Source: Candidatus Cloacimonadales bacterium (GTDB lineage: Bacteria; Cloacimonadota; Cloacimonadia; Cloacimonadales; WRIO01). From it: 64,000 nucleotides of DNA. How positions within the stretch are numbered: the stretch's first letter is position 1; each line of letters begins with the position of its first letter. The notes beneath the pieces were generated by a model, which worked only from the letters and a program-made list of their open reading frames with translations, did not search any database and had not been told where the DNA came from. The stretch covers positions 497 to 64,496 of the forward strand of contig JBAZCP010000005.1 of assembly GCA_041654875.1 (NCBI GenBank), given 5' to 3'. Below are positions 14,739 through 62,391 of the stretch, piece after piece. The position numbers and the translations under genes were made by a program.

Positions 14739-14814
14739 TCCGGAGTGGCTCAGGGGTTAGAGCGGGTGGCTGTTAACCACTAGGTCGGGGGTTCAAATCC
14801 CTCCTCCGGAGCCA
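14739..14814 (+). tRNA. tRNA-Asn (anticodon GTT), CCA encoded
   Basis: Acceptor stem TCCGGAG/CTCCGGA, anticodon loop CTGTTAA, T-loop GGGGGTTCAAATCCCTC, 3' GCCA. Confidence 0.9.
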
Positions 14815-17621: not shown

Positions 17622-18635
17622 TTATTGTAAATCAATTATATCTGTACCATCGGCATATTTTCGTGTTTTGTACTCTGTTATAGTTCTAATTTTATTGATA
17701 ATTTCGACGATTCTTTCGATATTTGATAAAATACTGCTGATACTTTTTTCCAGCCATGGATTTTGTTTTGCTTTCTCACTTAACAGCTCGCAATGCCCCA
17801 TAATAATTTGTAAAGGTTGGTTAAGCTCATGTGATACAGTACCTGCAATCTCCAGAATACTTTTTAATTTTTCAGAATAAATATTTAATTCTTCTGCCTT
17901 CTTTTTTTGAGAAATATCTTCACCAACTTTGACAAAATGTGTTGTATCACCAGCACTGTTTTTTATTGGTGCAATTGAGGCAGACTCCCAATAGTATGTG
18001 CCATCTTTATTCTTATTATAAAATTCACCATTCCATTTTTCACCTCTGTTCAAAATATCCCAGAAGTTTTTATAGAATTCACTACTTTGATGCCCAGAAT
18101 TGAATATTTTAGGACTTTTGTATTTTATTTCTTCAAAAGTAAAGCCAGTTTGCTCTGTAACTTTTGGGTTGATATACTCAATTAATCCCTCTTTGTTTGT
18201 AATTATTATAAGAGTTGGACTTTGCTCGACAGCTTGAACCATCTTATTTAGCATACTTTCTTGTTCTTTTCTCTTTATAGCATAGGCACATGTGATAGGA
18301 ATCATTTGTAAATAAGCTCTTTCTTTGTCTTTAACAAGAAAATCAAATGCACCTGCTTTCATACTTGTAACAGCAAGCTCAACGTCTTCAGCACCAGTAA
18401 TAATAATCAATGGAATATCTTTGTATAATGCCATTAGCTGCATTGCATCGCCATCACCTAATTGGTAATCAGAGACAATTACATCTATTCTATTGTCTTT
18501 AAGTAGGCGCAAAGCTTCTTTGAATGAACTTGCAAAGTAAAATATGTATTCATTGTCATAATCTTTCAAAAAACGCTCAATAGCCTTTCTATCTATAAAA
18601 TCATCTTCAACAAGTAAAACTTTGTAATTTATCAT
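17622..18635 (-). CDS. Response-regulator receiver + PAS + HisKA-type DHp domain protein with no HATPase domain
   Basis: The ORF track starts at 18674. The ATG at 18635 is preceded by AGGAGGT, giving MINYKVLLVEDD. Contains a REC domain, a PAS domain (…GEKWNGEFYNKNKDGTYYWE…) and the H-box SHELNQPL. The protein ends about 60 aa after the H-box. Confidence 0.75.
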   Translation of the reverse strand: MINYKVLLVEDDFIDRKAIERFLKDYDNEYIFYFASSFKEALRLLKDNRIDVIVSDYQLGDGDAMQLMALYKDIPLIIITGAEDVELAVTSMKAGAFDFLVKDKERAYLQMIPITCAYAIKRKEQESMLNKMVQAVEQSPTLIIITNKEGLIEYINPKVTEQTGFTFEEIKYKSPKIFNSGHQSSEFYKNFWDILNRGEKWNGEFYNKNKDGTYYWESASIAPIKNSAGDTTHFVKVGEDISQKKKAEELNIYSEKLKSILEIAGTVSHELNQPLQIIMGHCELLSEKAKQNPWLEKSISSILSNIERIVEIINKIRTITEYKTRKYADGTDIIDLQ

Positions 18636-18649
18636 AAAACCTCCTATCT

Positions 18650-19060
18650 TTATAATAATACCTGTGTATCCCAATAGTCAAAAGTAATTTTTAGACTCTT
18701 TGCAAATATCTTATTGTTTGAACATTTGTGAATATAACCACGTGCACCCGATTGATAAGCTTGCATGACATCATTCTCATCTTTTGAAGTTGAAACAATT
18801 ATAATAGGGATAGTATAATATTTTTGCTCAAGTTGTATCTTTTTCAAAAAATCAAATCCATTAAACTTGGGTGTATTTAGATCTAAGAATATAATTCCAA
18901 TAGAATTTACAAAAAACTCTTTAGGACTATTAAAGAATTCTTCTCCATTTTTAAATATTAAAAGTGGATTGTTAATTTCTAAGTCTTTTAGACACTTTTT
19001 AAAAACCATTATATCAACTTTATCGTCTTCTATTAAAACTATGCTCTTTCTATTCAGCAT
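18650..19060 (-). CDS. Single-domain response regulator (CheY-like receiver)
   Basis: 136 aa: IVLIEDDKVD...IIFLDLNTPKFNG...VSTS... Confidence 0.85.
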   Translation of the reverse strand: MLNRKSIVLIEDDKVDIMVFKKCLKDLEINNPLLIFKNGEEFFNSPKEFFVNSIGIIFLDLNTPKFNGFDFLKKIQLEQKYYTIPIIIVSTSKDENDVMQAYQSGARGYIHKCSNNKIFAKSLKITFDYWDTQVLL

Positions 19061-49058: not shown

Positions 49059-50273
49059 TTATCTCAAGATTTTCTCAATCTTTGATGCCCTCAATCTTGC
49101 AGGTTGTTTGAACCCTGAACCAATTAATGGGCGACAATAAGAAAGAAATTGTTCTGTTACATAGTTACCATCTGAGTTAATATACTTATCAGGCATAAGC
49201 CTTGTCTTTGCTGCTATTTCAATAAGTGGCACAGGCTTATACTCAACAGCATAATCTCCAACACGTTGTATAGTAATAGAGCAGTCAATGTTATGCCAAA
49301 TAGCAAAATGTGCAGCCTTCTCCCCTACCTCTCTTGCTTCGATCTGATCGATATCAGATACACATGGCATGAATGAGCGCTGCAAATAGCCAAATGTATC
49401 AGCCCTTACACGACCAATTTTCAGATTCTTTTTGATATACTCTGACAATAAATCACCTAAAGCACCAGTACCAGAAAGCTGGACATTTCCATGAGCATCT
49501 CTTTCGACAGTATCTGTAAGTGTACTAATTATTGGGATTCCCTTTCTGTCTGTAATACCCTCAGAAACGGCGATTACACAACGTCCATATTTATCGTATG
49601 TAGTCTTAACGTCATTTAAGAACTTTTCTTTGTCAAAAGCCCTTTCTGGCAAGTATATTAAGTGCGGTCCATCATCTGGAAATTTCTTTGCCATTGCAGC
49701 AGCTGCAGTTAAAAAGCCTGCATGTCTTCCCATGACTACACCAATATAAACGCCTGGTAAAGATCTGTTATCTAAATTTGCACCCACAAATGATTCAGCT
49801 ACAAACCTTGCAGCAGAGCCATAGCCAGGTGTATGATCATTCAAAACTAAGTCATTGTCTATAGTTTTTGGGATATGTATTGCTCTAAAATCATAGTTTT
49901 CTGCTTTTGCTTTTTCATTAATAATTCGCACTGTATCGGACGAATCATTACCACCGATATAAAAGAAATATCTTACATCGTGTGCTTTTAGCACTTGAAA
50001 AGCTTGTGCACAATATGCTTCATCTGGTTTATCTCTTGTAGAAAGCAATGCAGATGATGCACTATTTGCCACCTGTTCTAAGTTATGATTTGTTTCTTGT
50101 GTTAAATCGAGAAAATCTTCATTTAATATGCCTCTTATACCATTTACAGCACCATATATTTTTGTAACTTGAGGAAACTTTCTGGATTCAAGAATTGCAC
50201 CAACTAAAGATTGATTGATTACAGCTGTGGGACCTCCCCCTTGAGCTATGACAACTTTTCCTTGTAACTTCAT
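49059..50273 (-). CDS. 6-phosphofructokinase, PPi-dependent-type signature
   Basis: 404 aa. Contains GGGPTAVIN. GGNDS has Asp where ATP-PFKs have Gly, and IPKTIDNDL has Lys where ATP-PFKs have Gly. Confidence 0.8.
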   Translation of the reverse strand: MKLQGKVVIAQGGGPTAVINQSLVGAILESRKFPQVTKIYGAVNGIRGILNEDFLDLTQETNHNLEQVANSASSALLSTRDKPDEAYCAQAFQVLKAHDVRYFFYIGGNDSSDTVRIINEKAKAENYDFRAIHIPKTIDNDLVLNDHTPGYGSAARFVAESFVGANLDNRSLPGVYIGVVMGRHAGFLTAAAAMAKKFPDDGPHLIYLPERAFDKEKFLNDVKTTYDKYGRCVIAVSEGITDRKGIPIISTLTDTVERDAHGNVQLSGTGALGDLLSEYIKKNLKIGRVRADTFGYLQRSFMPCVSDIDQIEAREVGEKAAHFAIWHNIDCSITIQRVGDYAVEYKPVPLIEIAAKTRLMPDKYINSDGNYVTEQFLSYCRPLIGSGFKQPARLRASKIEKILR

Positions 50274-50385: not shown

Positions 50386-52200
50386 TTATTTCATCAAAAT
50401 GGCTCTTTTTACTTCTAAATTATTCTCTGTTTGCAATTTATAGTAATAAATGCCAGAGGGCATATTGGTTCCATTAACATCTTTACCATTCCAGTTCACT
50501 GTATGATTACCAGCGTTTTTAATATCATTTACTAAAGTTACAACTTTTTGCCCTTTACAATTATAAATAGATATATTTACCATTTCACTTTTATCTATTT
50601 GGTAGGCTATAGTTGTATTTGGGTTAAATGGATTAGGATAATTACCTTGCAATTGCTTTGTTTTGGCGATAGCATTATTGTCTGTTGCTACCCAAGCAAA
50701 GTCAGAAAGCATTCTGCTTGCTACAAATCTTCCATCTACTCTTTCGTGAGGGATACATGCCATTGTTATTGTTCCACTTGGTACGGGTGTTTCTATATAA
50801 TCTTCATCATAAAAAGATGTGCGGAAATTAGCATTACCTGTACCGTCTGTAATAGGATAAACACTTCCTACTTCAAAATCTCCAGATGCATTAACAAAAG
50901 TAAGACCACTAATTGCAACAAGCCTGGATTCATACATATCAAAGTTTGAGTTAAGTTGTTGAATTGTTATTGAAATAGCGGTAACAGGGTTGTTTGAAGA
51001 GCTTGGTGCTGTTATATTTACTGTTGGAATAAACTGCAACATTCCATTAAATGTTTCAATTTTTCCTGACAATCCAGTTATTCCATCGCCTATATTGAAA
51101 TTAGTACTAATAACGTTTGAATAGTCATCAATAAGAATTCCTGCATTTGCGTCTTGTACAAAGATTTGATTTCTAAAGCTTTGTGTAAACGACACTATCA
51201 CTTCACCTGTTACTGTATATATTGTCACGCCATCGTCGTTTTGTTGCCTTAATTCACTTAAATTAGCCACAGCTACAGCAAATGAGTAGGTTGCAGAAGT
51301 TGTATTACTTGGTGTAAAATTATCTTTATAGGCTTTTGCTTTCAGAATAGTTGTTTCAGAAATAGTTATTGGATTTGAATATAAAGTTGACGACTCTGTT
51401 GGTTCATCACCATTAATTGTGTAATAGATTTGTGCACCTGCTGTTGGACAAGTAATAGAGACGGAAATAGGCTCACTATAAACACCGCCTGCGGGGTCAA
51501 AGCTTGGTGCTAAAACAATATCACCAGCTGTGCTGCTAAATGTTATGTTATCATATCTGTAAGTACCACCAGTACCATAACTACCTGTTGGGTTTGCAGG
51601 TCCATAAGCGTTTGTACCTGAAACAAAGGCTGATACAATTCTTATTCCAAAATTTGCGTTGTTATTAACTTCTTGAATTGAAGCAAAACTTGCAGAGCGG
51701 TAAAACCAAGTACCCCCAGCGTCAACAATATATAAGCCATTATCATAAGCAGATTCATTGTTGGTGATTGTATTTGTATTGCTTGCATTTGCAGCATTTG
51801 CATCAAAATCTATCCAATTTACGCCATCAATTGTGTACTGAAGACACATGCGACTTGAGCCTGTATTGCTATTCCTTTGGTGCCAGCTAATTTCGACATT
51901 TTCTTTACCAACTGTTGATACCATTGCTTGAATGCCGGCAGTCTTGTTGCCTGTTCCTTGAGCAGGATATCCAGTAGATTGAAGAGCTAAGCCGCCAGAG
52001 CCTGAACCTGTAAAGCCTGTGAGAAATTCGTAACTTATATCTCCAATTGTGGTCAATACACCGTCTCCTTCAGCTGGAATAAAGTTACTATTTTCAAAAT
52101 CCCAGTAAGTAAAAGATGTTTGGGCATAAAGCATGCCAAAAGAGAAAAGAACAAGCAATATGAGCATTGTGTTTTTAATTGTTAAACTTTTAACCTTCAT
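50386..52200 (-). CDS. Secreted multidomain protein with CHB_HEX_C-like domain and T9SS (Por) C-terminal sorting domain
   Basis: The ATG at 52200 follows GGAGGA. Signal peptide present. YYTINGDEPTESSTLYSNPITISETTILKAKAY is a chitobiase C-terminal-like segment. The C-terminus is YPNPFNPNTTIAYQI...SGIYYYKLQTENNLEVKRAILMK. Confidence 0.7.
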   Translation of the reverse strand: MKVKSLTIKNTMLILLVLFSFGMLYAQTSFTYWDFENSNFIPAEGDGVLTTIGDISYEFLTGFTGSGSGGLALQSTGYPAQGTGNKTAGIQAMVSTVGKENVEISWHQRNSNTGSSRMCLQYTIDGVNWIDFDANAANASNTNTITNNESAYDNGLYIVDAGGTWFYRSASFASIQEVNNNANFGIRIVSAFVSGTNAYGPANPTGSYGTGGTYRYDNITFSSTAGDIVLAPSFDPAGGVYSEPISVSITCPTAGAQIYYTINGDEPTESSTLYSNPITISETTILKAKAYKDNFTPSNTTSATYSFAVAVANLSELRQQNDDGVTIYTVTGEVIVSFTQSFRNQIFVQDANAGILIDDYSNVISTNFNIGDGITGLSGKIETFNGMLQFIPTVNITAPSSSNNPVTAISITIQQLNSNFDMYESRLVAISGLTFVNASGDFEVGSVYPITDGTGNANFRTSFYDEDYIETPVPSGTITMACIPHERVDGRFVASRMLSDFAWVATDNNAIAKTKQLQGNYPNPFNPNTTIAYQIDKSEMVNISIYNCKGQKVVTLVNDIKNAGNHTVNWNGKDVNGTNMPSGIYYYKLQTENNLEVKRAILMK

Positions 52201-52406
52201 ATTATCCTCCATTCAATATTTAAACCAGATTATAAAACATGGAAAATATGGCAAGAATTTTTATTAAAAAAGTTTAAGAAAGAATCCATTGTATATAATA
52301 ATCATATAAATAGATTTTTTTTACTCAACAAAAGTAGTCAATCAATGAAAATATTTCAATCATTATCCAATCTTTTTATCAACTAAAATTCTTACCCCAA
52401 TATATT

Positions 52407-52435
52407 TTGACACCTTGATGCTTTATAAATATAAT
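52407..52435 (+). promoter_or_regulatory. Perfect-consensus sigma70 promoter with no adjacent ORF (fires into repeat copy 3)
   Basis: TTGACA (52407-52412), exactly 17 nt, TATAAT (52430-52435). Confidence 0.6.
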
Positions 52436-52529
52436 GTATCTGTGTTGGCAGAAAAGGAACAGCAAAAATCATAGATGTATAACATAAAAAATGCTTTTGG
52501 GGATGCAAATTATCATATTGTCGTAAAGT

Positions 52530-52620
52530 ATTACAATCCCGTTAGATTCCCCTTTGATTCCCCCTGCTATCTTTGAGAATGAATGGATATATAGTAGACA
52601 TATAAGAGGCATATAAGAGG
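52530..52620. repeat. Copy 3 of the three-copy intergenic element (core inverted relative to copies 1 and 2; 2 x CATATAAGAGG 11-mers)
   Basis: The core at 52545-52586 matches the reverse complement of 8095-8136 at 36 of 42 positions (hand count). One ATCCCGTTA unit at 52536-52544. 11-mers at 52599-52609 and 52610-52620. Confidence 0.8.
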
Positions 52621-52831
52621 TTTTAAATGGGTATTATAATAATATTATGGGTAGCAAGCTTATTAAAAATAAGTACAAGGTTTATATGATTTTCATTGTT
52701 TTGATAGAAATAAAAGATATACCTCAAGCTAAAATAGTCATTTTTGGCAGCAATTTTTTGGCATAAGTTTTGTTTTTTTGTATACCAAAAACTGCAAACT
52801 CAATTTTATTTAAAGAAAATCATAATTTTTA

Positions 52832-52860
52832 TTGACAAGAATAATTTTTTTTTATATATA
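52832..52860 (+). promoter_or_regulatory. Sigma70-type promoter for the Y_Y_Y/PP2C sensor operon
   Basis: TTGACA (52832-52837), 17-nt spacer, TATATA (52855-52860), AAGGAG at 52869-52874, ATG at 52878. Confidence 0.5.
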
Positions 52861-52877: not shown

Positions 52878-55800
52878 ATGATGAAAAAAATATTTTTATT
52901 TATTCAACTACTAATACTCGCAACGTTGGCATATGCTCAATCATTACCTATCAGAAACTATTCAACAGACGATGGGTTGGTACAAAGTCAGGTATCACAA
53001 ATTTCCCAAGATAATAACGGTTATATATGGTTTTTAACTCTTGGTGGTGCTTCAAAATTCGATGGATACACTTTTTTAAATTACAATTTAGCGACAGGAT
53101 TAGCAACAAATACAATGAGCCAATTTGATGTTAATGACGACATTATCTATTTTATTGGTAATAACACAATTAGTATTGTTGAAGGAAAGAATATTATTAA
53201 ATATGATCAGAATTACTTTTTGGACGAGCTTCATGAAAAAGTTTTAAATATCGCATTAACTGGCGATTCTACAAAAACTTTCATCAACGTTGCAACAGAG
53301 TCAAAAATTTATAGATACAGCAATGATGAAAAAGTTTTCAAAGAGTATTACGATTTACGACAATTACCTGAACCAATTAACACAGATGCCCTCACAGTTC
53401 GATACCCAGATAATGACCACATAATGGTGCTATTTGACAAAAGTTGTTATTTAGTACATCTTCATGATAATAGCATTACAAACCTATTAGAAGAGCTTGA
53501 TATTTCATTAGAAAACGGCGGCTCAATTGGTTATTATGGAATCAATAATGATAAGGGAGAATACACATTATTTTATACGAATGAATCTTCAACAGAATCA
53601 AAAATCATTCAATATAATGTTTTGACAAAAGAAAAAGATTTGGTCTTGACAAGCAAAAACATTACTGAAATTGCGTATAACAGTGAATCAGGCTCTTCTC
53701 TCTATTATAAAAAAGACGACTACTATCAATTTGTAACAGCAGAAGGTAAAATATTTAACTATAATCCATTAACTAAAGATAGATTTTTTAGCGATGACTT
53801 AATTCAGCCCAAAAAAATAAATATGTCTAATGTCGTCAATGTATACTATCTTAATGATCATCTTTGGATAGGTACAAATGAGGGGCTTATTGACTACAAT
53901 ATTCAAACGAAGAAAACAAAAACTTATACAACCGATGATGGCTTGTCAAGCAACAATATTCAATGTATTTATGTCGATCGTGAAGACAATATTTGGTTAG
54001 GCATGAATGGCACAGGAGTTGATGTTGTTGTTCAAGGTAATATCAGTAATTATGATGCAAAAAATGGTTTATCTCATTCTGGTACAACTAACTGTACTGA
54101 AGGTGATGATGGCAGCCTATGGATCAGTTGCGATAATGGCTTATCACGATTATTGCCTGATGGGACCATAAAAAATTATAATTCAAATGATGGCTTACCT
54201 CATAATGACACATGGGCACTTTCTAAAGATACAAATGGACAGATTTGGGTAGGTACCTATAATACAGGGCTCGTTTCATTTGATGGAAAGAAATTTATTA
54301 ACAGAAGACCAAAAGAACTTGAACCTTATAGTGGCTACTTAACTGGTATATTTTCCGATTCAGAAGGTAATATTTGGGTGTTTATCAGGTATTATATCAT
54401 AAAATACGACAAGGATTATAACTATACTATTTACAAACAGCCAGAGTCACAATCTGTCTATGAGGTCGTAGAAGATAGTGATGGGCTTTTGTGGGGTGCT
54501 TTAGGGAATAAAGGTATAGCTGTTATGAATAAAAATGCAGAAATATTAGCTAACTACCCAATTGATACGCGAGTTTTCAATTCAATTATTGTAGGATTAG
54601 AGATTGTTGACAAAAACACTATTTTATGCTTTACATACGGTGAGGGAATTATTGAATTTGATAGAAACACAAAGCAATATAATAGAATCTTCAAATCCAA
54701 ATTACAGGACTATGGAATCACCAAAGCTCATGTAAGAGATGACGATGGTAATTTGTGGGTTGGGACTATAAAAGGCATAGTGAAAATTACTAAAGACAAT
54801 ATTATAAAAGAATTTAAGAAAGAAGATGGCTTGATTGGAGAAGATGTCAGAACAACAGGAGCATTTAAAGACAGTAAGGGTGTTCTTTGGTTCTGCACAT
54901 CAGCAGGACTTGTAAGAATAATCGCAGAAGAACAAAATATTGATTCTACTCCACCCAAAATGATTATTACCGATTTCAAATCAAAACAAACTCATAATAT
55001 CATTAATAATCAAAAAGTCACGCTTGCCCCCAATGATAGAACAATCTCAATAAGCTTTACAGGTATTGATTTAAGAAACCCAAATCGCGTACAATACTCA
55101 TATATTTTAGAGGATTTTGATCAAGATTGGTCACCGCTTTCCTTAGATAGATCGATCAGATATACAAACCTAAACAATGGGAAATACACATTCAAAGTAT
55201 ACTCGATTGATCATGCAGGCAATAAAAGTGAGATAAAAGAGATTGATATTGTTATTTTAACTCCATTTTGGAAGACATGGTGGTTCATTAGTTTGGAAGT
55301 TTTAATCCTGATACTTATTGTTATCGGTATTATTAACTGGCGATTAAGATTACTAAAAAGAAAGAATGAACAACTTGAATTCTTAGTTGCACTAAGAACC
55401 AAACAGCTTAAAGAAAAGAACGATCAATTGTTGAGTAGTATTAGATACGCTGAAAGAATACAAAAAGCTTTATTAGTTGATAAAAGCGATCTAAAGAAAG
55501 TATTTAAAGACCTATTTATATTGTTTTTACCTAAAGATATTATATCTGGTGACTTCTATTGGTATTATAAGAATGAAAATTATTATTACTTAGCTGTTGT
55601 TGACTGTACTGGGCATGGTGTTCCAGGTGCACTATTATCAATTGTTGGCAATATGCTTTTAAATGAAGCTGTTAATGGCATTCAGAATGCAAAGCCTGGA
55701 GAGCTACTAACAAGCTTACACGAAAATGTGAGACTTGTCCTTTCTCAAACTAATGAAAGAGGCGGTTCAAGAGACGGCATGGAGGTTGCACTTTGCCGTA

Positions 55801-56198
55801 TTAATAAGGATTTAACTGAGTTAGTATTTGCAGGTGCCAATCGTCCACTTTACTATTTTGAAAAATCAAACTTAAAGCAACTCAAAGAAGTGTCGGGAAC
55901 TCGTAAAGGAATTGGAGGTTTGCAACGCGAAGAATTTAGAGTTTTTGATGACACAACTATATCATTAGAGAATGTACATTCATTATATATGTATAGTGAC
56001 GGGCTGGTAGATCAAAATAATGCTGCTAATAAAAAGTTCTCATCAAGATATTTAAAATCTATTCTTAAAGATATAGTAAATAAAGATATGGAAGAACAGG
56101 AAAAAATAATCATTGACGAATTAACCAAACATAAAGAAAATGAACCACAAAGAGACGATATAACAATGATTGGTCTTGTTGTTCACAATAAAGTATAA
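52878..56198 (+). CDS. Sensor protein: beta-propeller repeats + Y_Y_Y domain + TM helix + SpoIIE/PP2C-type phosphatase domain (SiaA-like role)
   Basis: 1106 aa with a signal peptide. Repeated ...DGLSSNNIQCIYVDREDNIWLG... propeller motifs. Y_Y_Y region YSYILEDFDQDW...YTNLNNGKYTFKVY. TM helix WWFISLEVLILILIVIGII. PP2C motifs ISGDFYWY, VVDCTGHGVPGALLS, YMYSDGLVDQ and RDDITMIG. Confidence 0.8.
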   Translation: MMKKIFLFIQLLILATLAYAQSLPIRNYSTDDGLVQSQVSQISQDNNGYIWFLTLGGASKFDGYTFLNYNLATGLATNTMSQFDVNDDIIYFIGNNTISIVEGKNIIKYDQNYFLDELHEKVLNIALTGDSTKTFINVATESKIYRYSNDEKVFKEYYDLRQLPEPINTDALTVRYPDNDHIMVLFDKSCYLVHLHDNSITNLLEELDISLENGGSIGYYGINNDKGEYTLFYTNESSTESKIIQYNVLTKEKDLVLTSKNITEIAYNSESGSSLYYKKDDYYQFVTAEGKIFNYNPLTKDRFFSDDLIQPKKINMSNVVNVYYLNDHLWIGTNEGLIDYNIQTKKTKTYTTDDGLSSNNIQCIYVDREDNIWLGMNGTGVDVVVQGNISNYDAKNGLSHSGTTNCTEGDDGSLWISCDNGLSRLLPDGTIKNYNSNDGLPHNDTWALSKDTNGQIWVGTYNTGLVSFDGKKFINRRPKELEPYSGYLTGIFSDSEGNIWVFIRYYIIKYDKDYNYTIYKQPESQSVYEVVEDSDGLLWGALGNKGIAVMNKNAEILANYPIDTRVFNSIIVGLEIVDKNTILCFTYGEGIIEFDRNTKQYNRIFKSKLQDYGITKAHVRDDDGNLWVGTIKGIVKITKDNIIKEFKKEDGLIGEDVRTTGAFKDSKGVLWFCTSAGLVRIIAEEQNIDSTPPKMIITDFKSKQTHNIINNQKVTLAPNDRTISISFTGIDLRNPNRVQYSYILEDFDQDWSPLSLDRSIRYTNLNNGKYTFKVYSIDHAGNKSEIKEIDIVILTPFWKTWWFISLEVLILILIVIGIINWRLRLLKRKNEQLEFLVALRTKQLKEKNDQLLSSIRYAERIQKALLVDKSDLKKVFKDLFILFLPKDIISGDFYWYYKNENYYYLAVVDCTGHGVPGALLSIVGNMLLNEAVNGIQNAKPGELLTSLHENVRLVLSQTNERGGSRDGMEVALCRINKDLTELVFAGANRPLYYFEKSNLKQLKEVSGTRKGIGGLQREEFRVFDDTTISLENVHSLYMYSDGLVDQNNAANKKFSSRYLKSILKDIVNKDMEEQEKIIIDELTKHKENEPQRDDITMIGLVVHNKV

Positions 56199-56228
56199 AT
56201 GATAATAAAAATTAATCAAGGAGTTTTG

Positions 56229-56813
56229 ATGGTAAACAATCATAAAGAACACGATTTTTACATGTCTGATTCTGATCTGTTTTCCCTATATTCGAGTGGG
56301 GGGCTTGAAAAGACAATTTTAATGTTCAAAGGACTTTTAACACAAGATATCTTGGTTGTTTTGGCTGAAATGTTAGCAAATAATTTATCTAATGATCCAA
56401 GACAAAAAACAACCAAGAAAATGTTTTCAATCTTCGTAGAACTTGCACAGAATATACATCGTTATTCAGAAGAAAGATTCATATCTGAAGGAAAAGAAAT
56501 TGGTGCAGGAATTGTATTAGTTAATGAATTTAAAGACTATTACACTCTTATTTCGGGCAACATCGTTCAAAATAATGTTTATCTATCCCTCAAAGAGAAA
56601 GTAGACACCTTAAACAAAATGGATGACACAGAATTAAAATCATATCGAAAAGAAAAACTTAAACAAAAAAGAAAAGAAGGCGATAAAGGAGCAGGTGTAG
56701 GATTAATTGATATTGCAAGAAAAGCTTCTAAGCCGATAGGACTCAAAGAAAAAAGACTTGAGAATGATCTTTCGTTTATTAGCTTCTATATTTTACTTGA
56801 AAAGGAGTTTTAA
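56229..56813 (+). CDS. SiaB-like GHKL-fold protein kinase (DUF6272-type)
   Basis: The ATG at 56229 lies 5 nt after AAGGAG; the ORF-track start is 56199. Contains ILMFKGLLTQDILVVLAEML... and GAGVGLIDIARKASKP, resembling the SiaB family as I remember it. Confidence 0.6.
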   Translation: MVNNHKEHDFYMSDSDLFSLYSSGGLEKTILMFKGLLTQDILVVLAEMLANNLSNDPRQKTTKKMFSIFVELAQNIHRYSEERFISEGKEIGAGIVLVNEFKDYYTLISGNIVQNNVYLSLKEKVDTLNKMDDTELKSYRKEKLKQKRKEGDKGAGVGLIDIARKASKPIGLKEKRLENDLSFISFYILLEKEF

Positions 56814-57211
56814 TGGAGAACTTATATATTGAGGGAAGTAAATTTACTATGGAAGTCAACTATAATGCCGAAACAAACTTATGCATTATGAAAGGGAATT
56901 CTTACCCAGAGGATGCAATCAACTTTTTTGAGCCCTTAAATGAATGGTTAGAACAATATATAGAGGAAATTAACAAACCATTAACAATGGAAATTCAACT
57001 ATACTACTTGAATTCAAGCTCTTCTAAATGTTTTATGGATATTTTTGATATTCTTGATGAATACCAAGAAGATGGAGGCAGCGTAATAGTAAAATGGTTC
57101 TACGAGAGAAATGATGATGAAATACGAGAAGCAGGAGAAGAACTACTTGAAGATATGAGCTTTAAGTTTGAGTATATTGAGATTCCAGAGTCATCATTAT
57201 ATGAGGCATAA
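56813..57211 (+). CDS. DUF1987 (SiaC-like) partner-switching protein
   Basis: 132 aa. Contains IMKGNSYPEDAINFFEPLNEWLEQY and LYYLNSSSSKCFMDIFDIL. TAATG overlap with the upstream gene. Confidence 0.7.
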   Translation: MENLYIEGSKFTMEVNYNAETNLCIMKGNSYPEDAINFFEPLNEWLEQYIEEINKPLTMEIQLYYLNSSSSKCFMDIFDILDEYQEDGGSVIVKWFYERNDDEIREAGEELLEDMSFKFEYIEIPESSLYEA

Positions 57212-58203
57212 TGAATAGTAAAAAAACAGAAAACCAAGTAGATAAATCTGACAGAGATACTCAGTTAAAAAAGTTTTATCGAAGTGAGTTTGAGCTATAT
57301 GAAGAGTGCATGGATATTGCTCAAGAAAAAGATGCACAAGAAAAGGTTTTTAAAGCTTATGAAAGATTATTAAAAGCATATTATAAGAACCTGAGAATGA
57401 GTTTGAAGATTACAAATATTGGTGATTCAACACAAAACAAACTTTTAAAAACACAAGAAGCTCTAAGAAATCAAGAAGAAAAATTAAGAGCAATATTTGA
57501 CAATGCAATTTCAAGCATCATTACGATTGATCTTCAGGCAAAGTTTTTGTCATACAATAATAATTGGTTACAAATGATAAATCAAGAAGATGTGCCTATG
57601 GAAGAAAAATACTTTCATGAATTTCTGCATAATGAAGATAAAGAGAAATTCATTGTTGAATTTGACTCTCTAATTAAAAAAGAAAATAACTATTTCAGAT
57701 TGCTCCTTAGGCTATTTGATCAAGAAAAATATTTTTGGTCTGACTGTTCTGCTTCGATTATTCATAACAAAGAAAATAACCCAGAATCAATAATTATCAT
57801 TATTAATAATATTGATGAACAAATCAAAACACAAGAAAAGCTTGCTGAATCTTATTTGCAACTTAAAAATGCACAAGATGAAATCTTAAAATTAGAAAGA
57901 GAAACAACAGCACTGGCAATGGCAGTCACAGCAAATCACGAAATAAACCAACCTTTAATGGTAATTAAAGCCAATCTTGATATGTTAAAACTTAAAATTG
58001 ACCCCAATAATGTTGATACATATATAGATAAATATATGCAAAGAATTGATGAGTCTGTAGATAGGATAAGCTCGATATTAGATAAGTTCAAGAAAACACA
58101 AGAGGTTGAATTTAACGATTATGGTGGAAATACTACTATGGTAAGTTTTAATTACGATTCAGAATTTGATGATGGGCTTGATGACCCGTTTGACGATTTG
58201 TAA
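57211..58203 (+). CDS. PAS + HisKA-type DHp domain protein without HATPase domain, acidic C-terminal tail
   Basis: 330 aa. Coiled coil, PAS-like region, H-box NHEINQPL, and no N/G1/G2 boxes. Ends ...DSEFDDGLDDPFDDL. TAATG overlap with the DUF1987 gene. Confidence 0.65.
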   Translation: MNSKKTENQVDKSDRDTQLKKFYRSEFELYEECMDIAQEKDAQEKVFKAYERLLKAYYKNLRMSLKITNIGDSTQNKLLKTQEALRNQEEKLRAIFDNAISSIITIDLQAKFLSYNNNWLQMINQEDVPMEEKYFHEFLHNEDKEKFIVEFDSLIKKENNYFRLLLRLFDQEKYFWSDCSASIIHNKENNPESIIIIINNIDEQIKTQEKLAESYLQLKNAQDEILKLERETTALAMAVTANHEINQPLMVIKANLDMLKLKIDPNNVDTYIDKYMQRIDESVDRISSILDKFKKTQEVEFNDYGGNTTMVSFNYDSEFDDGLDDPFDDL

Positions 58204-58224
58204 TAGCTATATATGAGATAAGAT

Positions 58225-59451
58225 ATGTTTATTTATAATTTATTTTTGAGAATTGCGTATATAGTTTTCTTTCCTATTCTATACTTTTTATTTAGAAACA
58301 ATAATTTTAAACAAAGATTTAGAATAAAAGAACTAAGCTTGACCGACACAATTTGGATACATGCATCATCTATTGGCGAAGTTAATGCAGTCAAACCTCT
58401 TCTTTTAAAACTGATTAGATTATACCCAAGACGCTCTTTTGTAATGACATGCATGACAAAAACTGGCTTGGAGAATGCAAAAAAAATAAACAATAAGCTT
58501 ACTGTTTTGCCATTCCCTTTTGATATGCCGCATATAATAAAAAGATTTGTACGTGTAATAGATCCTTCTCTTATTATACTTGTTGAAACAGAGATTTGGC
58601 CCAATTTAATAAATATTGCTTATAAGAATAAAATACCTGTCGCTATTGTAAATGGAAGAATATCAGATAAATCTTACCCACGATACCACTATACACGTTT
58701 CTTTTGGAAAAACATCTTTAAAAAAATTATGATTGTAAATGCACAGTCCGAGAAAGATTCTCAAAGATTTAAGAGTCTTGGAAGTAAAAATGTATTAAAC
58801 TCGAATAACCTTAAATTCTCATGTGATTTTCCAGAATATGATAAAAGTGAATTAAGGAAAGCATGGGGCTTTTCATTCAATGACATTATAATATCCTTTG
58901 GAAGCACCAGGCCTGGCGAAGAAAAAATAATTATTGATTTAGCAAGACAATTAAAACATGAAATACCTCGTTTAAAGATTATAGTAGTGCCACGACACCT
59001 CCATAGGATAAATGAGGTTAAAAAGCTGTTAAAAAGACATGAATACAGCTTATTTTCTGAGAATATTCACGATAGACTCATTACAATTGTTGATGAGATG
59101 GGTATTTTAACACAAGTATATGCCTTATCAGATATAGCGATTATAGGCGGTAGCTTTTCAAATTTTGGGGGTCATAATCCTCTTGAAGCTGCAGCATATA
59201 AAAATGCTCTGATTATCGGACAATACCATCAATCCTGCCGCGATATTGTTGAAAAACTACATGAAAGCAACGGTATCATTATTGCAGATGAAAATAGCCT
59301 ACACCAAGAAATAACAAGACTTATGAGTAATATTGAAATAAGAAAAATGATTGGTAATAATGCATTTAACGTTATTGAAGCTAACAAAAATAGTATTGAC
59401 CTACACATAAATAATTTGCAAGAAGTAATTAGTATGAAAGAAATAGTATGA
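58225..59451 (+). CDS. waaA: 3-deoxy-D-manno-octulosonic acid (Kdo) transferase
   Basis: 408 aa. Motifs IWIHASSIGEVNAVKPLL, VETEIWPN and GGHNPLEAA. Confidence 0.85.
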   Translation: MFIYNLFLRIAYIVFFPILYFLFRNNNFKQRFRIKELSLTDTIWIHASSIGEVNAVKPLLLKLIRLYPRRSFVMTCMTKTGLENAKKINNKLTVLPFPFDMPHIIKRFVRVIDPSLIILVETEIWPNLINIAYKNKIPVAIVNGRISDKSYPRYHYTRFFWKNIFKKIMIVNAQSEKDSQRFKSLGSKNVLNSNNLKFSCDFPEYDKSELRKAWGFSFNDIIISFGSTRPGEEKIIIDLARQLKHEIPRLKIIVVPRHLHRINEVKKLLKRHEYSLFSENIHDRLITIVDEMGILTQVYALSDIAIIGGSFSNFGGHNPLEAAAYKNALIIGQYHQSCRDIVEKLHESNGIIIADENSLHQEITRLMSNIEIRKMIGNNAFNVIEANKNSIDLHINNLQEVISMKEIV

Positions 59452-60449
59452 TAAAAAAAACTAAAGCATCTTATTGGCATAAGCTTGAAAATCTAAATAT
59501 CCAGTGCCAATTATGTCCAAATTTGTGTGTTATTGATAATAATCATAGAGGCATTTGCCGAACAAGAATAAATGAAAATGGTGTTTTGTATACTGAAACA
59601 TACGGTAATATCTGCTCAACAAACATTGATCCTATTGAAAAAAAACCTCTTTTTCATTTTTATCCAAATACAAAAATCTATTCAATCGGATGCAACTCAT
59701 GCAACCTTAGCTGTCAATTCTGTCAAAACTATGAAATTAGTCAATACGAAGTTCCTATCTTATATATAGCACCTGACAAATTACTTGATATGGTGTTGAA
59801 AAGTCAAGCAAAATCAATTGCATTTACTTACTCAGAACCGCTAATGATGACAGAATATTTACTTGATTGTCTTCCTTTATTTAAACAATATCAAATAAAA
59901 ACAGTTTTGGTTTCAAATAGCTTTATTAATGAAAAACCGCTCTTGGATATAATACCCTATGTGGATGCATGGAATGTCGATTTTAAGAGTATTTCAAATG
60001 ATTTTTATCATAATATTTGCTCAGCTGATTTAGATATTGTAAAAAGAAACATAAAAATTATTGCAAATAATGCACATTTAGAAATCAGCTTTTTACTCAT
60101 ACCTACTTTAAACGATAGCGATGAGGAAGTATTGGAAATTGCGTCATTTATTAAATCTATAAATCCAAATATCCCTTTACATATCAATAGATATCACCCT
60201 GCTTATAAAATGCAAATACCTGCAACACCCATAAAAACATTAGTTAATGCTTATGATATTGCAAAAACACAATTAAAATATGTGTATATTGGTAATATTG
60301 GTAAATCTGATTATAATCAAACTTATTGCCCAAATTGTAATACCCTACTTATTGATAGAAACAATTCCGTTGATTATTCAAAAAGTATATCAAACAATAT
60401 ATGTAGCAATTGCAACCATCCGATCTATGGACACTTTTGTAAGTTTTAA
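59448..60449 (+). CDS. AmmeMemoRadiSam-system-type radical SAM enzyme
   Basis: N-terminal CQLCPNLCVI...GICRTR, radical-SAM motif CNLSCQFCQN, C-terminal CPNC...CSNC cluster. Confidence 0.65.
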   Translation: MIKKTKASYWHKLENLNIQCQLCPNLCVIDNNHRGICRTRINENGVLYTETYGNICSTNIDPIEKKPLFHFYPNTKIYSIGCNSCNLSCQFCQNYEISQYEVPILYIAPDKLLDMVLKSQAKSIAFTYSEPLMMTEYLLDCLPLFKQYQIKTVLVSNSFINEKPLLDIIPYVDAWNVDFKSISNDFYHNICSADLDIVKRNIKIIANNAHLEISFLLIPTLNDSDEEVLEIASFIKSINPNIPLHINRYHPAYKMQIPATPIKTLVNAYDIAKTQLKYVYIGNIGKSDYNQTYCPNCNTLLIDRNNSVDYSKSISNNICSNCNHPIYGHFCKF

Positions 60450-60458
60450 GAGAATTAC

Positions 60459-60845
60459 ATGAACTATAGCATTATAAAAGACATTAAGAATACTTTATCA
60501 AAAGCAGATATAGCGTTAATTATTGTTGTCATTTTAATTTCAACAACTTCTTTATTTTGTCTTGGCTTATCTAAAAAGCCAAACACAATTATTGTGCATC
60601 TGGATAATAAAGACTTTAATGAATATGATCTCAATAAAGATCAAATTATCGTAATAAATAATCATAACACAGTTGAAATTCGCGATAAGAAAGTTAGAAT
60701 GTTATATTCTGATTGCAAAAACCAACAATGTGTAAAACAAGGTTGGTCAGAAAAAGTGCCAATTATTTGTGTACCAAACAAACTAAGTATTAAGTTTTCG
60801 ACCAAAGAATCAACCATTAATCAAGAAATGCTAATAACGTACTAA
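60459..60845 (+). CDS. NusG domain II-containing membrane-anchored protein
   Basis: 128 aa with an N-terminal TM helix. Contains DCKNQQCVKQGW...IICVPNKLSIKF. Confidence 0.5.
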   Translation: MNYSIIKDIKNTLSKADIALIIVVILISTTSLFCLGLSKKPNTIIVHLDNKDFNEYDLNKDQIIVINNHNTVEIRDKKVRMLYSDCKNQQCVKQGWSEKVPIICVPNKLSIKFSTKESTINQEMLITY

Positions 60846-60846
60846 C

Positions 60847-62391
60847 ATGAAAAGAATTTTACTGTTAATATTTGTTTTTTTACTCTTGGTAAGCACATTT
60901 TTTTTCATAAGTAGCAAGTTCACCGATAGCGTTACAATAAAGCAAATTAAAGTTATCTCAGTATCAGCTATGAAATGGGTCTTTCTTCTAATGATCATAT
61001 CTATTATACTGTTAGTTATAAAAGAAAACTCCAACCCTGTAAAAACATTAGCATGGGTGCAAGTCTTAATATTTCTGCCAGTGATTGGATTTATCCTTTA
61101 TATTGTATTTGGTATCAATTACAGAAAGAAAAAACTATATAAGAAGAAGTCAAAAAAAGACTTTGCAACTATTGACTCGATTATTTTTAATAAAAACTTA
61201 CAAACTAATGACTATTACAATGTTCTAAAAAGTAAAAGTAAAAATGCACACAAACTGATCAATTTACTTTATAATAACAGCAAGGCTGTTCTTTGTTTAT
61301 ATAACAATATTAGTGTTTTTTATTCTGGAAAAGAGAAAATTGATTCCCTTTTTAAAGATATAGTTGATGCACAATCATCAATTCATTTAGAATATTTTAC
61401 AATAATGGACGATAAGACAGGTTATAGATTACAGGAATTATTATTGCAAAAACTGTCTGAAGGAGTGCAAGTACGCATCATATATGATTCTGTGGGTTGT
61501 TGGCGTACTAAAAGAAAATATTGGAATAAAATTAGAGATGCAGGAGGAGAATGCTACCCATTCTCAGCAACTTTTCTTCCTTTCCTCTCAAGTAAACTAA
61601 ACTATAGAGATCATCGAAAGATTGCTATTATTGATGGTAAATACGCTTATATTGGTGGCGTAAATATCGGAGATCAATATATGGGTTTGTCTAAACATTT
61701 TGACTATTGGAGAGACACTCATTATAGGGTAACAGGTCAAGCATGTGCTATTATTCAACAAATGTTTTTACTGGATTGGCTGTTTGTGTCGAAACAAGAT
61801 GAATTTAAAGCTCAGTTTTTTCCCAAACACAATGTAACTCATTTATGCCCTTTGCAAGTGATTAGCTCTGGTCCTGATTCTGATTGGCAAAATATTCATC
61901 AAGCGTATTTTGAGATGATTTGCAGTGCACGCCAAAAGTTGTATATCCAAACTCCTTATATGTTTTTGGATGAAAGTATATTAATGGCATTAAAAATTGC
62001 TGGCTTATCAGGAGTTGATGTAAGAATTATTCTTCCTCACAAGTCTGACCATACATTCGTACACTTTGGAACAAAATCTTATTATTATGAGCTTTTGGAA
62101 GCTAATGTTAAGCTATATGAATACACAAAAGGATTTATGCATGCTAAAGTAATTATTGTTGATAATGAGCTTTGCTCGGTAGGCTCTGCTAATCTCGATA
62201 TTAGAAGCTTTAGTCAAAATTTCGAAATGAATGCACTTGTTTATGAAGAAAATGAAGTTCAAAGACTTTTGGAAAGCTTTTCCATCGATTTAGAAAATAG
62301 CATACAAATAAAAATTGAAAACATAAAAAAGAAAAAAGTGTTTCATAGATTTATTGAATCATTTGCAAGGTTATTTTCACCAATATTTTAA
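60847..62391 (+). CDS. cls: Cardiolipin synthase
   Basis: Two N-terminal TM helices and two HKD motifs (HRKIAIIDGKYAYIGGVNIGD; HAKVIIVDNELCSVGSANLD). Confidence 0.9.
   Translation: MKRILLLIFVFLLLVSTFFFISSKFTDSVTIKQIKVISVSAMKWVFLLMIISIILLVIKENSNPVKTLAWVQVLIFLPVIGFILYIVFGINYRKKKLYKKKSKKDFATIDSIIFNKNLQTNDYYNVLKSKSKNAHKLINLLYNNSKAVLCLYNNISVFYSGKEKIDSLFKDIVDAQSSIHLEYFTIMDDKTGYRLQELLLQKLSEGVQVRIIYDSVGCWRTKRKYWNKIRDAGGECYPFSATFLPFLSSKLNYRDHRKIAIIDGKYAYIGGVNIGDQYMGLSKHFDYWRDTHYRVTGQACAIIQQMFLLDWLFVSKQDEFKAQFFPKHNVTHLCPLQVISSGPDSDWQNIHQAYFEMICSARQKLYIQTPYMFLDESILMALKIAGLSGVDVRIILPHKSDHTFVHFGTKSYYYELLEANVKLYEYTKGFMHAKVIIVDNELCSVGSANLDIRSFSQNFEMNALVYEENEVQRLLESFSIDLENSIQIKIENIKKKKVFHRFIESFARLFSPIF

Follow-up and report, generated by a model that had tools for sequence, protein, structure and literature searches.

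The subject of this analysis is a four-gene signalling locus at 52878-58203 of a 64,000-nucleotide stretch of contig JBAZCP010000005.1 from a Candidatus Cloacimonadales bacterium; the whole stretch is called the window below. The window has a low GC content (∼31%) and the closest matches of its proteins carry the names Candidatus Cloacimonadales or Cloacimonadota. In the SiaABCD system of Pseudomonas aeruginosa, SiaA is a PP2C phosphatase, SiaB a kinase, SiaC a phosphoprotein and SiaD a diguanylate cyclase (PMC7647112, PMC8457831). The initial annotation had described four co-directional genes forming a SiaABC-type switch with a propeller/Y_Y_Y input and, replacing the diguanylate cyclase, an output protein made of a PAS domain and a DHp domain with no ATPase domain attached. 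The coordinates agree exactly with the list of open reading frames (ORFs), the TAATG stop/start overlaps linking genes 2 to 4 (56811-56815 and 57209-57213) are both real in the sequence, and the domains and gene linkage set out below support the description. On balance, the locus is probably a SiaABC-type partner-switching system rewired onto a two-component-like output (Table 1).

Table 1. Features of the locus, by position in the window. DHp* is the C-terminal module of gene 4 described in the text; aa, amino acids.
Feature	Position	Strand	Basis
Promoter-like element TTGACA-17 nt-TATATA, directly upstream of gene 1	52832..52860	+	read from sequence; inferred
Gene 1, SiaA-like sensor phosphatase, 1106 aa	52878..56198	+	Pfam, motifs
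Gene 2, SiaB-family GHKL-type Ser/Thr protein kinase	56199..56813	+	DUF6272, NF038262, 6KKO_A alignment
Gene 3, SiaC-family (DUF1987) phosphoprotein; Ser68 codon 57014-57016	56813..57211	+	PF09345, 6KKO_C alignment
Gene 4, putative target: N-terminal helical docking domain, PAS and DHp*, 330 aa	57211..58203	+	Pfam, AF2
Putative SiaC-docking motif K66-ITNIGDSTQ-75, helix preceding PAS	57406..57435	+	likeness to SiaD stalk RISDRYQ
PAS domain of gene 4, aa 91-200	57481..57810	+	PAS_3 27.4, PAS 25.1, TIGR00229 43.9 bits
DHp* helical hairpin; His243 codon 57937-57939 within LAMAVTANHEINQPLM	57814..58095	+	HisKA, near-invariant motif
C-terminal beta-hairpin VEFND-YGGNT-TMVSF, family consensus F..Y...T.MV.F	58105..58149	+	conservation, model
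Acidic tail, 8 D/E in 17 residues	58150..58200	+	read from sequence

Gene 1 encodes a signal peptide, a periplasmic Reg_prop beta-propeller (82.5 bits in Pfam) with Y_Y_Y (55.3 bits, residues 734-794), a transmembrane (TM) segment at residues 797-821, a coiled coil and a PP2C/SpoIIE domain (67.7 bits, residues 900-1100) in which the metal-binding motifs DCTGHG, RDGME, YSDGL and RDDIT are present. This is the 1106-residue propeller, Y_Y_Y, TM and PP2C architecture originally proposed, and the protein is predicted to be the PP2C-type phosphatase that acts on SiaC. The NCBIfam SiaA equivalog model covers only the C-terminal 275 residues, with 167.8 bits against a cut-off of 700, and gene 1 is therefore not an equivalog.

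Gene 2 matched DUF6272 in Pfam (126.6 bits) and the SiaB_fam_kinase model NF038262 in NCBIfam (150.6 bits, cut-off 85), and the SiaB chain 6KKO_A aligns with it at E 1.4e-18. The segments ELAQNI (catalytic Glu/Asn box) and GAGVGL (Gly box) are conserved, and the protein is of the same size as P. aeruginosa SiaB with no extra domain. Its true start is probably the ATG at 56229, since this codon stands behind AAGGAG and gives a 194-residue product matching the orthologues. Gene 3 scored 134.5 bits with PF09345 (SiaC, formerly DUF1987) and aligns end to end, over residues 1-120, with crystallised P. aeruginosa SiaC (6KKO chain C, E 1.3e-23). By residue count along this alignment, Ser68 in the segment LNSSSSK falls at the position of the phospho-acceptor Thr68. 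Both family assignments of the initial annotation hold, as does its placing of LNSSSSK in the phospho-acceptor region, and the locus appears to possess both a SiaB-family kinase and a SiaC with a hydroxyl acceptor at position 68. Gene 2 fell below the cut-off of its P. aeruginosa equivalog model (NF038264, 96.6 bits, cut-off 225) and so did gene 3 (NF038265, 115 bits, cut-off 150). With the SiaA score of gene 1 also below its cut-off, genes 1 to 3 are thus family members and not orthologous equivalents.

Gene 4 matched only PAS models and HisKA in Pfam, the latter (PF00512, residues 241-293) with 28.0 bits against a cut-off of 26.9. His243, the predicted acceptor, lies in the H-box ANHEINQPL and is followed by only 87 residues. 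No HATPase_c match was found in gene 4 with Pfam or NCBIfam and PF02518 is absent from all 91 of its database homologues. GGDEF gave no match in gene 4 or its orthologues, nor did Hpt (PF01627) in gene 4; the same search did find Hpt in neighbouring hybrid kinases and thus had the sensitivity required for this negative. The AF2 model of gene 4 (pLDDT 79) contains helices at residues 10-97, the PAS domain at 102-200 (pLDDT ∼90) and helices at 202-262 and 270-295, with no alpha/beta ATPase fold, and its best Foldseek matches are LOV/PAS-FixL kinases aligned over the PAS-DHp part only. This model, built from 21 sequences, left the tail disordered, and the beta-hairpin (strands 299-303 and 309-313) appeared only with an alignment of 108 sequences. 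Within the hairpin Y304 is invariant and F301, T308 and M310 are invariant or nearly so. Gene 4 therefore remains, as first proposed, a PAS-DHp protein with an intact H-box, no ATP-binding domain and an acidic tail (8 D/E in the last 17 residues), and a cryptic HATPase domain was found neither in it nor in the 91 homologues. Compared with the HisKA family of histidine kinases, it has the DHp domain with the H-box histidine and lacks HATPase_c.

The linkage of these genes was examined in a scan of one genome per GTDB species. This gave 193 loci encoding the C-terminal module of gene 4, almost all of them in Cloacimonadota and two in Calditrichota, and 80 were kept for analysis. The arrangement is far beyond chance and recurs in 11 of 11 Cloacimonadota reference genomes with a full-length gene 4 homologue; SiaB and SiaC lie immediately upstream in every one and the propeller-PP2C gene is also present in 10. 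A survey of gene neighbourhoods had been suggested at the outset, and conserved linkage in other genomes is what it revealed. The remaining reference locus (L018 5017-6936) and two metagenome contigs (L002 4714-6633 and L003 3048-4967) have the order gyrA-siaB-siaC-gene 4-maf with no adjacent phosphatase. In this subgroup a SiaA-type phosphatase must be encoded elsewhere or be absent, and the conserved core is thus SiaB-SiaC-gene 4.

Expression was assessed from assembled contigs of two anaerobic-digester metatranscriptomes containing the locus. One RNA contig, 56115-58741, runs from the end of gene 1 through genes 2 to 4 into the start of kdtA, and a second covers 55680-58117. These contigs carry no strand information and may be part DNA, so that they are supportive of co-transcription but fall short of proof. 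Upstream, contigs from the two metatranscriptomes begin at 52883 and 52912 while 52284-52851 is uncovered in both, which fits the promoter-like element directly before gene 1. No terminator-like site was seen after gene 4, whose stop codon is 22 nt from kdtA. This gap, and the contig that joins gene 1 to kdtA, make it probable that the transcription unit continues past gene 4. A perfect sigma-70 consensus, TTGACA-17-TATAAT (12/12), is also present at 52407-52435 (+), ∼440 nt upstream of gene 1, in the 665-nt intergenic region; neither metatranscriptome had a contig there. An Rfam scan of the window found one tRNA only, and no known RNA element in the 665-nt region.

The HisKA score of gene 4 is barely over the Pfam threshold, as might be expected if the gene were the decayed remnant of a PAS histidine kinase standing incidentally beside siaBC. 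This explanation is scarcely credible. Orthologues of 39-64% identity end alike, 76-94 residues past the histidine, and share the hairpin motif; the linkage to SiaBC is kept in 11 species; the gene is represented in the metatranscriptome contigs; and the 22 nt before kdtA leave no room for a downstream ATPase remnant. A reading of gene 4 as a truncated pseudogene was rejected on the grounds of conservation and expression.

How gene 4 might be connected to SiaC is suggested by work on P. aeruginosa. In the crystal structure, SiaC in its unphosphorylated form is bound to a helical stalk that is dimeric and precedes the cyclase domain of SiaD, with contacts between R80, I81, S82, D83, R84, Y85 and Q86 of SiaD and Y31, Y65, N67, T68, S69, E110 and D114 of SiaC (PMC8457831). 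Ser82 of SiaD forms a hydrogen bond with T68 of SiaC, and phosphorylation of Thr68 blocks binding (PMC8457831). Among these SiaC residues, Y31, Y65, N67, S69, E110 and D114 are kept without exception in gene 3 and its orthologues from Cloacimonadota, and serine stands in for T68. In gene 4 the segment KITNIGDSTQ (residues 66-75) is situated on a long helix ∼25 residues ahead of PAS, and in a profile-profile comparison with hhalign the SiaC-binding motif nearest to the cyclase domain in the SiaD stalk aligned with residues 46-87 of gene 4 (probability 78%, E 1.8e-5).

The genes downstream of SiaC were surveyed at 80 loci. In the proteobacterial loci the downstream gene encodes a ∼260-residue GGDEF protein with one or two motifs of the RISDRYQ type. 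The pattern K/R-I-x-x-I-[SGN]-D-x-x-Q is common to gene 4, the SiaD-like cyclases, a hybrid kinase (L094) and small Bacteroidales proteins, all encoded directly downstream of SiaC. A strict form of it was found in 64 of the 91 ORFs immediately downstream of SiaC as opposed to 16 of 5,039 other ORFs, and, in the family sharing the C-terminal module of gene 4, in 19 of 21 SiaC-linked entries and none of 69 unlinked ones; these counts are per locus and, as several sites were fetched repeatedly, the independent loci are fewer. The two SiaC-linked entries lacking the strict motif represent one genomic site, which has the near-variant KIAKTNDSSQ. The conserved contact residues of SiaC, the enrichment of the motif next to SiaC and the hhalign match together point to gene 4, with its predicted SiaC-binding stalk motif, as the direct binding target of dephospho-SiaC. 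That the locus is a SiaABC-type switch with gene 4 as its target is considered highly probable. The initial annotation had offered two speculative roles for gene 4, in the first of which unphosphorylated SiaC gates a DHp protein of the phosphotransfer or phosphatase type; the motif apparently shared with the SiaC-binding helix of SiaD lends this role specific support.

The survey also produced several SiaC loci with other outputs. At L094 (4371-8866, uncultured bacterium), SiaB-SiaC is followed by a second DUF6272 protein and then by a hybrid kinase of GAF-HisKA-HATPase_c-REC-REC-Hpt architecture. The N-terminal part of the latter contains the docking motif RLTNISDVNQ, and a full histidine kinase has here been connected to SiaC independently. 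Bacteroidales proteins of 106-110 residues encoded downstream of SiaC carry KMTRIGDKTQ. They belong to a Bacteroidota family of more than 60 clusters (P0217-P0282) of free-standing coiled-coil proteins which consist of the SiaC-docking module only, and at the Bacteroidales loci examined (L095 3114-3443, L098 5386-5718 and L099 2550-2870) they are encoded right after SiaB-SiaC. The docking gene is followed by one for a ∼700-residue TPR-TM protein with a weak, sub-threshold SpoIIE-like C-terminus, which may be the SiaA equivalent.

Judged by sequence, the C-terminal 110 residues of gene 4 define a near-invariant module, termed DHp*, of a family almost confined to Cloacimonadota. The module is made up of a coiled-coil lead-in, the near-invariant helix LAMAVTANHEINQPLM.i.gNl.mL, a second helix, the segment F..Y...T.MV.F and an acidic tail. 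An exhaustive HMMER search over 1.84 billion representatives returned 686 clusters at E<=0.001, of which 238 reached E<=1e-10. The motif was recognisable in 145 of the 150 top representatives; the histidine is present in 145/145, with E+1, N+3, Q+4, P+5 and L+6 after it conserved, and the His motif is near-invariant also across the 91 homologues of gene 4. The distance from the histidine to the C-terminus has a median of 77 residues, only three proteins continue for more than 130, and the last 15 residues contain on average 4.4 D/E. Modelling of the module with 108 sequences (pLDDT 87) gave a helical hairpin followed by the beta-hairpin. Its Foldseek neighbours are the kinase DHp domains of FixL chimeras, ERS1, GacS, CpxA and EnvZ, a consistent set with weak E-values.

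A Pfam architecture scan of 105 of the 150 representatives found HisKA in 103, TPR in ∼47, PAS in ∼24, REC in 16 and GAF in 5; HATPase_c was not among the 25 commonest families and is present in at most 5 of the 105. Other architectures were propeller/Y_Y_Y-TM-PAS-DHp*, dCache-PAS-DHp*, substrate-binding domain (SBP)-PAS-DHp*, five PAS domains with DHp*, and REC-PAS-DHp*-pentapeptide repeats. The Reg_prop/Y_Y_Y sensor type of gene 1 is also found fused straight to DHp* via a TM segment, with or without PAS (L022, L024, L039; P0102, P0109, P0202), and propeller input thus reaches DHp* by two routes in the phylum, directly and via PP2C-SiaC. At least 12 of the 80 loci kept are from a single genome, OY771587.1, and include one tandem triplet. 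Tandem triplets of overlapping TPR-DHp* genes were seen at L005 (7001-11472) and also at L023, L026 and L027; they are followed by genes for a phosphonate-type periplasmic binding protein and an HDOD-HD protein, an arrangement kept in several large Cloacimonadales genomes.

Three large Cloacimonadales genomes contain an in-frame fusion of the SiaC-linked protein to PAS-PAS-HisKA-HATPase_c (L015 5986-8571, L016 6001-8571 and L017 5950-8487). The fusion proteins have 845-861 residues and two different H-boxes, in the order docking helix-PAS-DHp*-PAS-PAS-HisKA(AHDLRGP)-HATPase_c, and the whole of DHp* including the hairpin and the acidic stretch is kept. The window itself encodes a second, divergent ATPase-less DHp protein at 17622-18674 (-), a REC-PAS-HisKA protein of 349 residues in length. 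Its H-box is SHELNQPL, and its tail, YADGTDIIDLQ, is similar to the hairpin of DHp*. A gene for a 135-residue single-domain receiver (18650-19060, -) overlaps its upstream end; no kinase gene is adjacent, and FdhD and peptidase M17 genes follow.

The second speculative role in the initial annotation was a split histidine kinase, in which the SiaB-like gene 2 product would bind DHp* of gene 4 and phosphorylate His243 in trans, with SiaC as a modulator. Gene 2 does have a GHKL-type nucleotide-binding core with conserved Glu/Asn and Gly boxes, genes 2 to 4 are translationally coupled, and gene 4 combines an intact H-box with the lack of an ATPase domain of its own. However, the near-invariant H-box is shared by the at least 12 DHp* loci of OY771587.1, none of which has a SiaB neighbour; more than 90% of DHp* proteins are without SiaB nearby, and one SiaBC locus per genome was detected. 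Moreover, gene 2 has the size of P. aeruginosa SiaB and no extra domain, the canonical SiaB substrate site on SiaC is kept as Ser68, and among the targets of SiaB-SiaC pairs are cyclases and other proteins without a DHp. This role is accordingly disfavoured and regarded as very unlikely.

The contexts of DHp* give clues to its function. It occurs after HisKA-HATPase_c-REC in L044, L058 and P0113 (sensor-HAMP-HisKA-HATPase_c-REC-DHp*), that is, where hybrid kinases normally carry HPt, and TPR-DHp* genes are sometimes beside those of TPR-HisKA-HATPase_c kinases. DHp* also commonly follows REC (16 of 105 representatives), as well as sensor domains typical of kinases. These contexts, with REC and kinase fusions, tie DHp* to His-Asp phosphorelays, and the invariance of the whole H-box speaks for phosphoryl chemistry and not for dimerisation alone. 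DHp* would be unable to autophosphorylate by itself, and the activity most likely for it is to exchange phosphoryl groups reversibly between His and Asp, to dephosphorylate a receiver domain, or both. The chances that DHp* works by phosphotransfer or phosphatase chemistry on a receiver are put at about even. As a rule, paralogues among the canonical kinases differ in the DHp surface by which the receiver is chosen. The near-identical H-box and adjacent helix face across DHp* paralogues, with their TPR, PAS, REC, propeller and Cache fusions, thus suggest one shared partner, on which the DHp* sensors of a genome, gene 4 included, probably converge.

The invariant histidine and nearly identical helix face could also mean that the common partner is an ATPase. 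An unlinked, dedicated ATPase consisting only of a catalytic (CA) domain would dock on the hairpin and acidic tail and phosphorylate the histidine of all DHp* proteins, with the sensor domain, or SiaC in the case of gene 4, gating access. Such a partner would give a role to the conserved C-terminal hairpin and tail, which have none assigned, and DHp* does replace a whole transmitter in the propeller/Y_Y_Y-TM-PAS, dCache-PAS and SBP-PAS architectures. Against this, no stand-alone HATPase_c gene is enriched beside DHp* genes (79 loci), and the position of DHp* after REC or HK-REC is better explained by phosphotransfer from a receiver. A family-wide trans-acting kinase is therefore unlikely, if worth bearing in mind.

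It is also doubtful that DHp* is a regulator whose histidine takes no part in phosphoryl chemistry, binding canonical kinases to inhibit or activate them as the RetS DHp does with the GacS DHp. Some DHp* genes do adjoin genes of complete kinases or are fused to them (L041, L050, L075, L015-L017), and the RetS-GacS DHp complex 7N0E is among the structural neighbours. Nevertheless, binding alone does not need a complete H-box (H, E+1, N+3, Q+4, P+5, L+6), which is kept in 145/145, and most DHp* genes have no kinase neighbour. The H-boxes of the complete kinases that are adjacent or fused (HDLxxP, HELRTP) are unrelated to that of DHp*, arguing against a shared heterodimer interface.

The mechanism preferred here for the locus is a SiaC-gated phosphotransfer or phosphatase protein. 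An envelope signal would alter the phosphatase activity of gene 1. Dephosphorylated SiaC would dock on the dimeric N-terminal helix of gene 4 in the manner of SiaC on SiaD, whereas phospho-Ser68 made by SiaB would prevent docking. Docking would then reshape the PAS-DHp* dimer and so switch the activity of DHp*.

Several observations weigh against this proposal. For the docking step, the hhalign probability is only 78%, gene 4 has glycine at the position of SiaD Ser82, and it has a single copy of the motif where many SiaD proteins carry two. The structure models show monomers. For the output step, a REC-DHp* gene in L006 directly follows a hybrid kinase with an Hpt of its own, a poor fit to a simple HPt-like role. 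When the two genes on each side of 83 DHp* genes were clustered, no stand-alone ATPase or receiver was enriched; the only enriched neighbours were SiaB, SiaC, T9SS-tail proteins, an HDOD-HD protein and genes of local synteny. The REC domains fused or adjacent to DHp* are 20-48% identical to each other and do not make up one orthologous group. With the kinase half of the fusion proteins as query, the reference genomes yielded only generic PAS-kinases of other phyla (32-50% identity) and no separate orthologue in Cloacimonadota having the short form, so that the fusion names no partner.

A wider view can be put forward only tentatively. Cloacimonadota and a few Calditrichota may run a parallel, kinase-less two-component layer in which dozens of sensor types per genome end in an almost identical DHp* module and act on one common partner. 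This partner would be a receiver or else a trans-acting ATPase docking on the hairpin and tail. The SiaC-binding helix would then be a portable adaptor plugging a Ser/Thr partner switch into the DHp* layer, and in other phyla its outputs would be cyclases, hybrid kinases or free-standing 107-residue coiled-coil proteins.

Around the locus, further genes are located at 50386-52212 (-), 49059-50273 (-), 58225-62391 (+) and 14739-14811 (+) of the window. The products in the surroundings include a T9SS-sorted surface protein with a chitobiase-C domain, phosphofructokinase, Kdo transferase, a radical SAM protein, a NusG_II protein, a cardiolipin-synthase-like PLD protein and one tRNA. Related genomes show synteny in the block that follows gene 4.

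The literature searched contained nothing on SiaBC with non-cyclase outputs or on DUF6272, describing only P. aeruginosa SiaABCD and its regulation of SiaD; the authors of that work go no further than to propose a possible modulation of adjacent proteins by those of the DUF1987 type. Neither the docking-motif rule nor the DHp* family is described in the same literature. The SiaB/SiaC pair with its short docking helix appears to behave as a modular cassette that has been attached in evolution to quite different outputs, and the helix offers a rule by which SiaC targets could be predicted from sequence, whatever the genome. The locus would link Ser/Thr partner switching directly to His-Asp-type signalling. 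DHp* proteins lack a specific annotation, being labelled "PAS domain S-box protein", "tetratricopeptide repeat protein" or "response regulator"; of the two halves of a histidine kinase, these sensors retain the one with the phospho-acceptor, the ATPase half having been systematically lost. They pose the question of how phosphate enters or leaves the DHp* proteins of these abundant, uncultured bacteria of anaerobic digesters.

Among known systems, gene 4 does not match the profile of monomeric four-helix HPt proteins (PF01627). It resembles HisKA kinases of the FixL/NtrB/DctB type in its H-box, HE[IL]NQPL, and its PAS-DHp architecture, and its best sequence and fold matches are FixL-based kinases. 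Unlike them it has no HATPase_c, a domain found in 0/91 of the closest homologues and at most 5/105 representatives. The DHp-type histidine phosphotransferases Spo0B of Bacillus, ChpT of Caulobacter and PhyT of Sphingomonas (PMC3433190, PMC5898713) provide a parallel, having a kinase-like dimerisation helix with a histidine and, as predicted for DHp*, no functional ATP-dependent autophosphorylation; the occurrence of DHp* after REC and after HK-REC also accords with a phosphotransfer step. However, Spo0B, ChpT and PhyT keep a degenerate CA-like alpha/beta domain where DHp* has only a 15-residue beta-hairpin and an acidic tail. DHp* differs from them also in being usually fused to sensor domains and highly multiplied per genome, and phosphotransfer by it is only predicted. 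In RetS-GacS (PDB 7N0E), among the fold neighbours, a DHp domain regulates another two-component protein without acting as its kinase, but RetS keeps its CA domain and two specific kinases interact, whereas the H-box of DHp* is fully conserved and differs from those of neighbouring kinases.

The non-sigma partner switches HptB-HsbR-HsbA-HsbD of P. aeruginosa and BgrSTUWV-BgrR of Sinorhizobium (PMC8457831, PMC7647112) share with the present locus, as proposed here, the control of a signalling enzyme through direct binding by a phosphorylatable STAS-like or SiaC-like protein. Their outputs are diguanylate cyclases, none of them DHp-only, and their parts are of the STAS/RsbW type instead of DUF1987/DUF6272. 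The locus departs from SiaABCD in an output of PAS and DHp* with no GGDEF and thus no SiaD cyclase, in the periplasmic Reg_prop/Y_Y_Y sensor that takes the place of the SiaA N-terminus, in the use of serine rather than threonine as acceptor, in the one docking motif with glycine for Ser82, and in scores below the cut-offs of all three NCBIfam equivalogs. What the two have in common is the gene order of phosphatase, SiaB and SiaC, the acceptor position 68, the target-binding surface of SiaC, and a putative docking motif placed on an N-terminal helix of the target just before its first globular domain.

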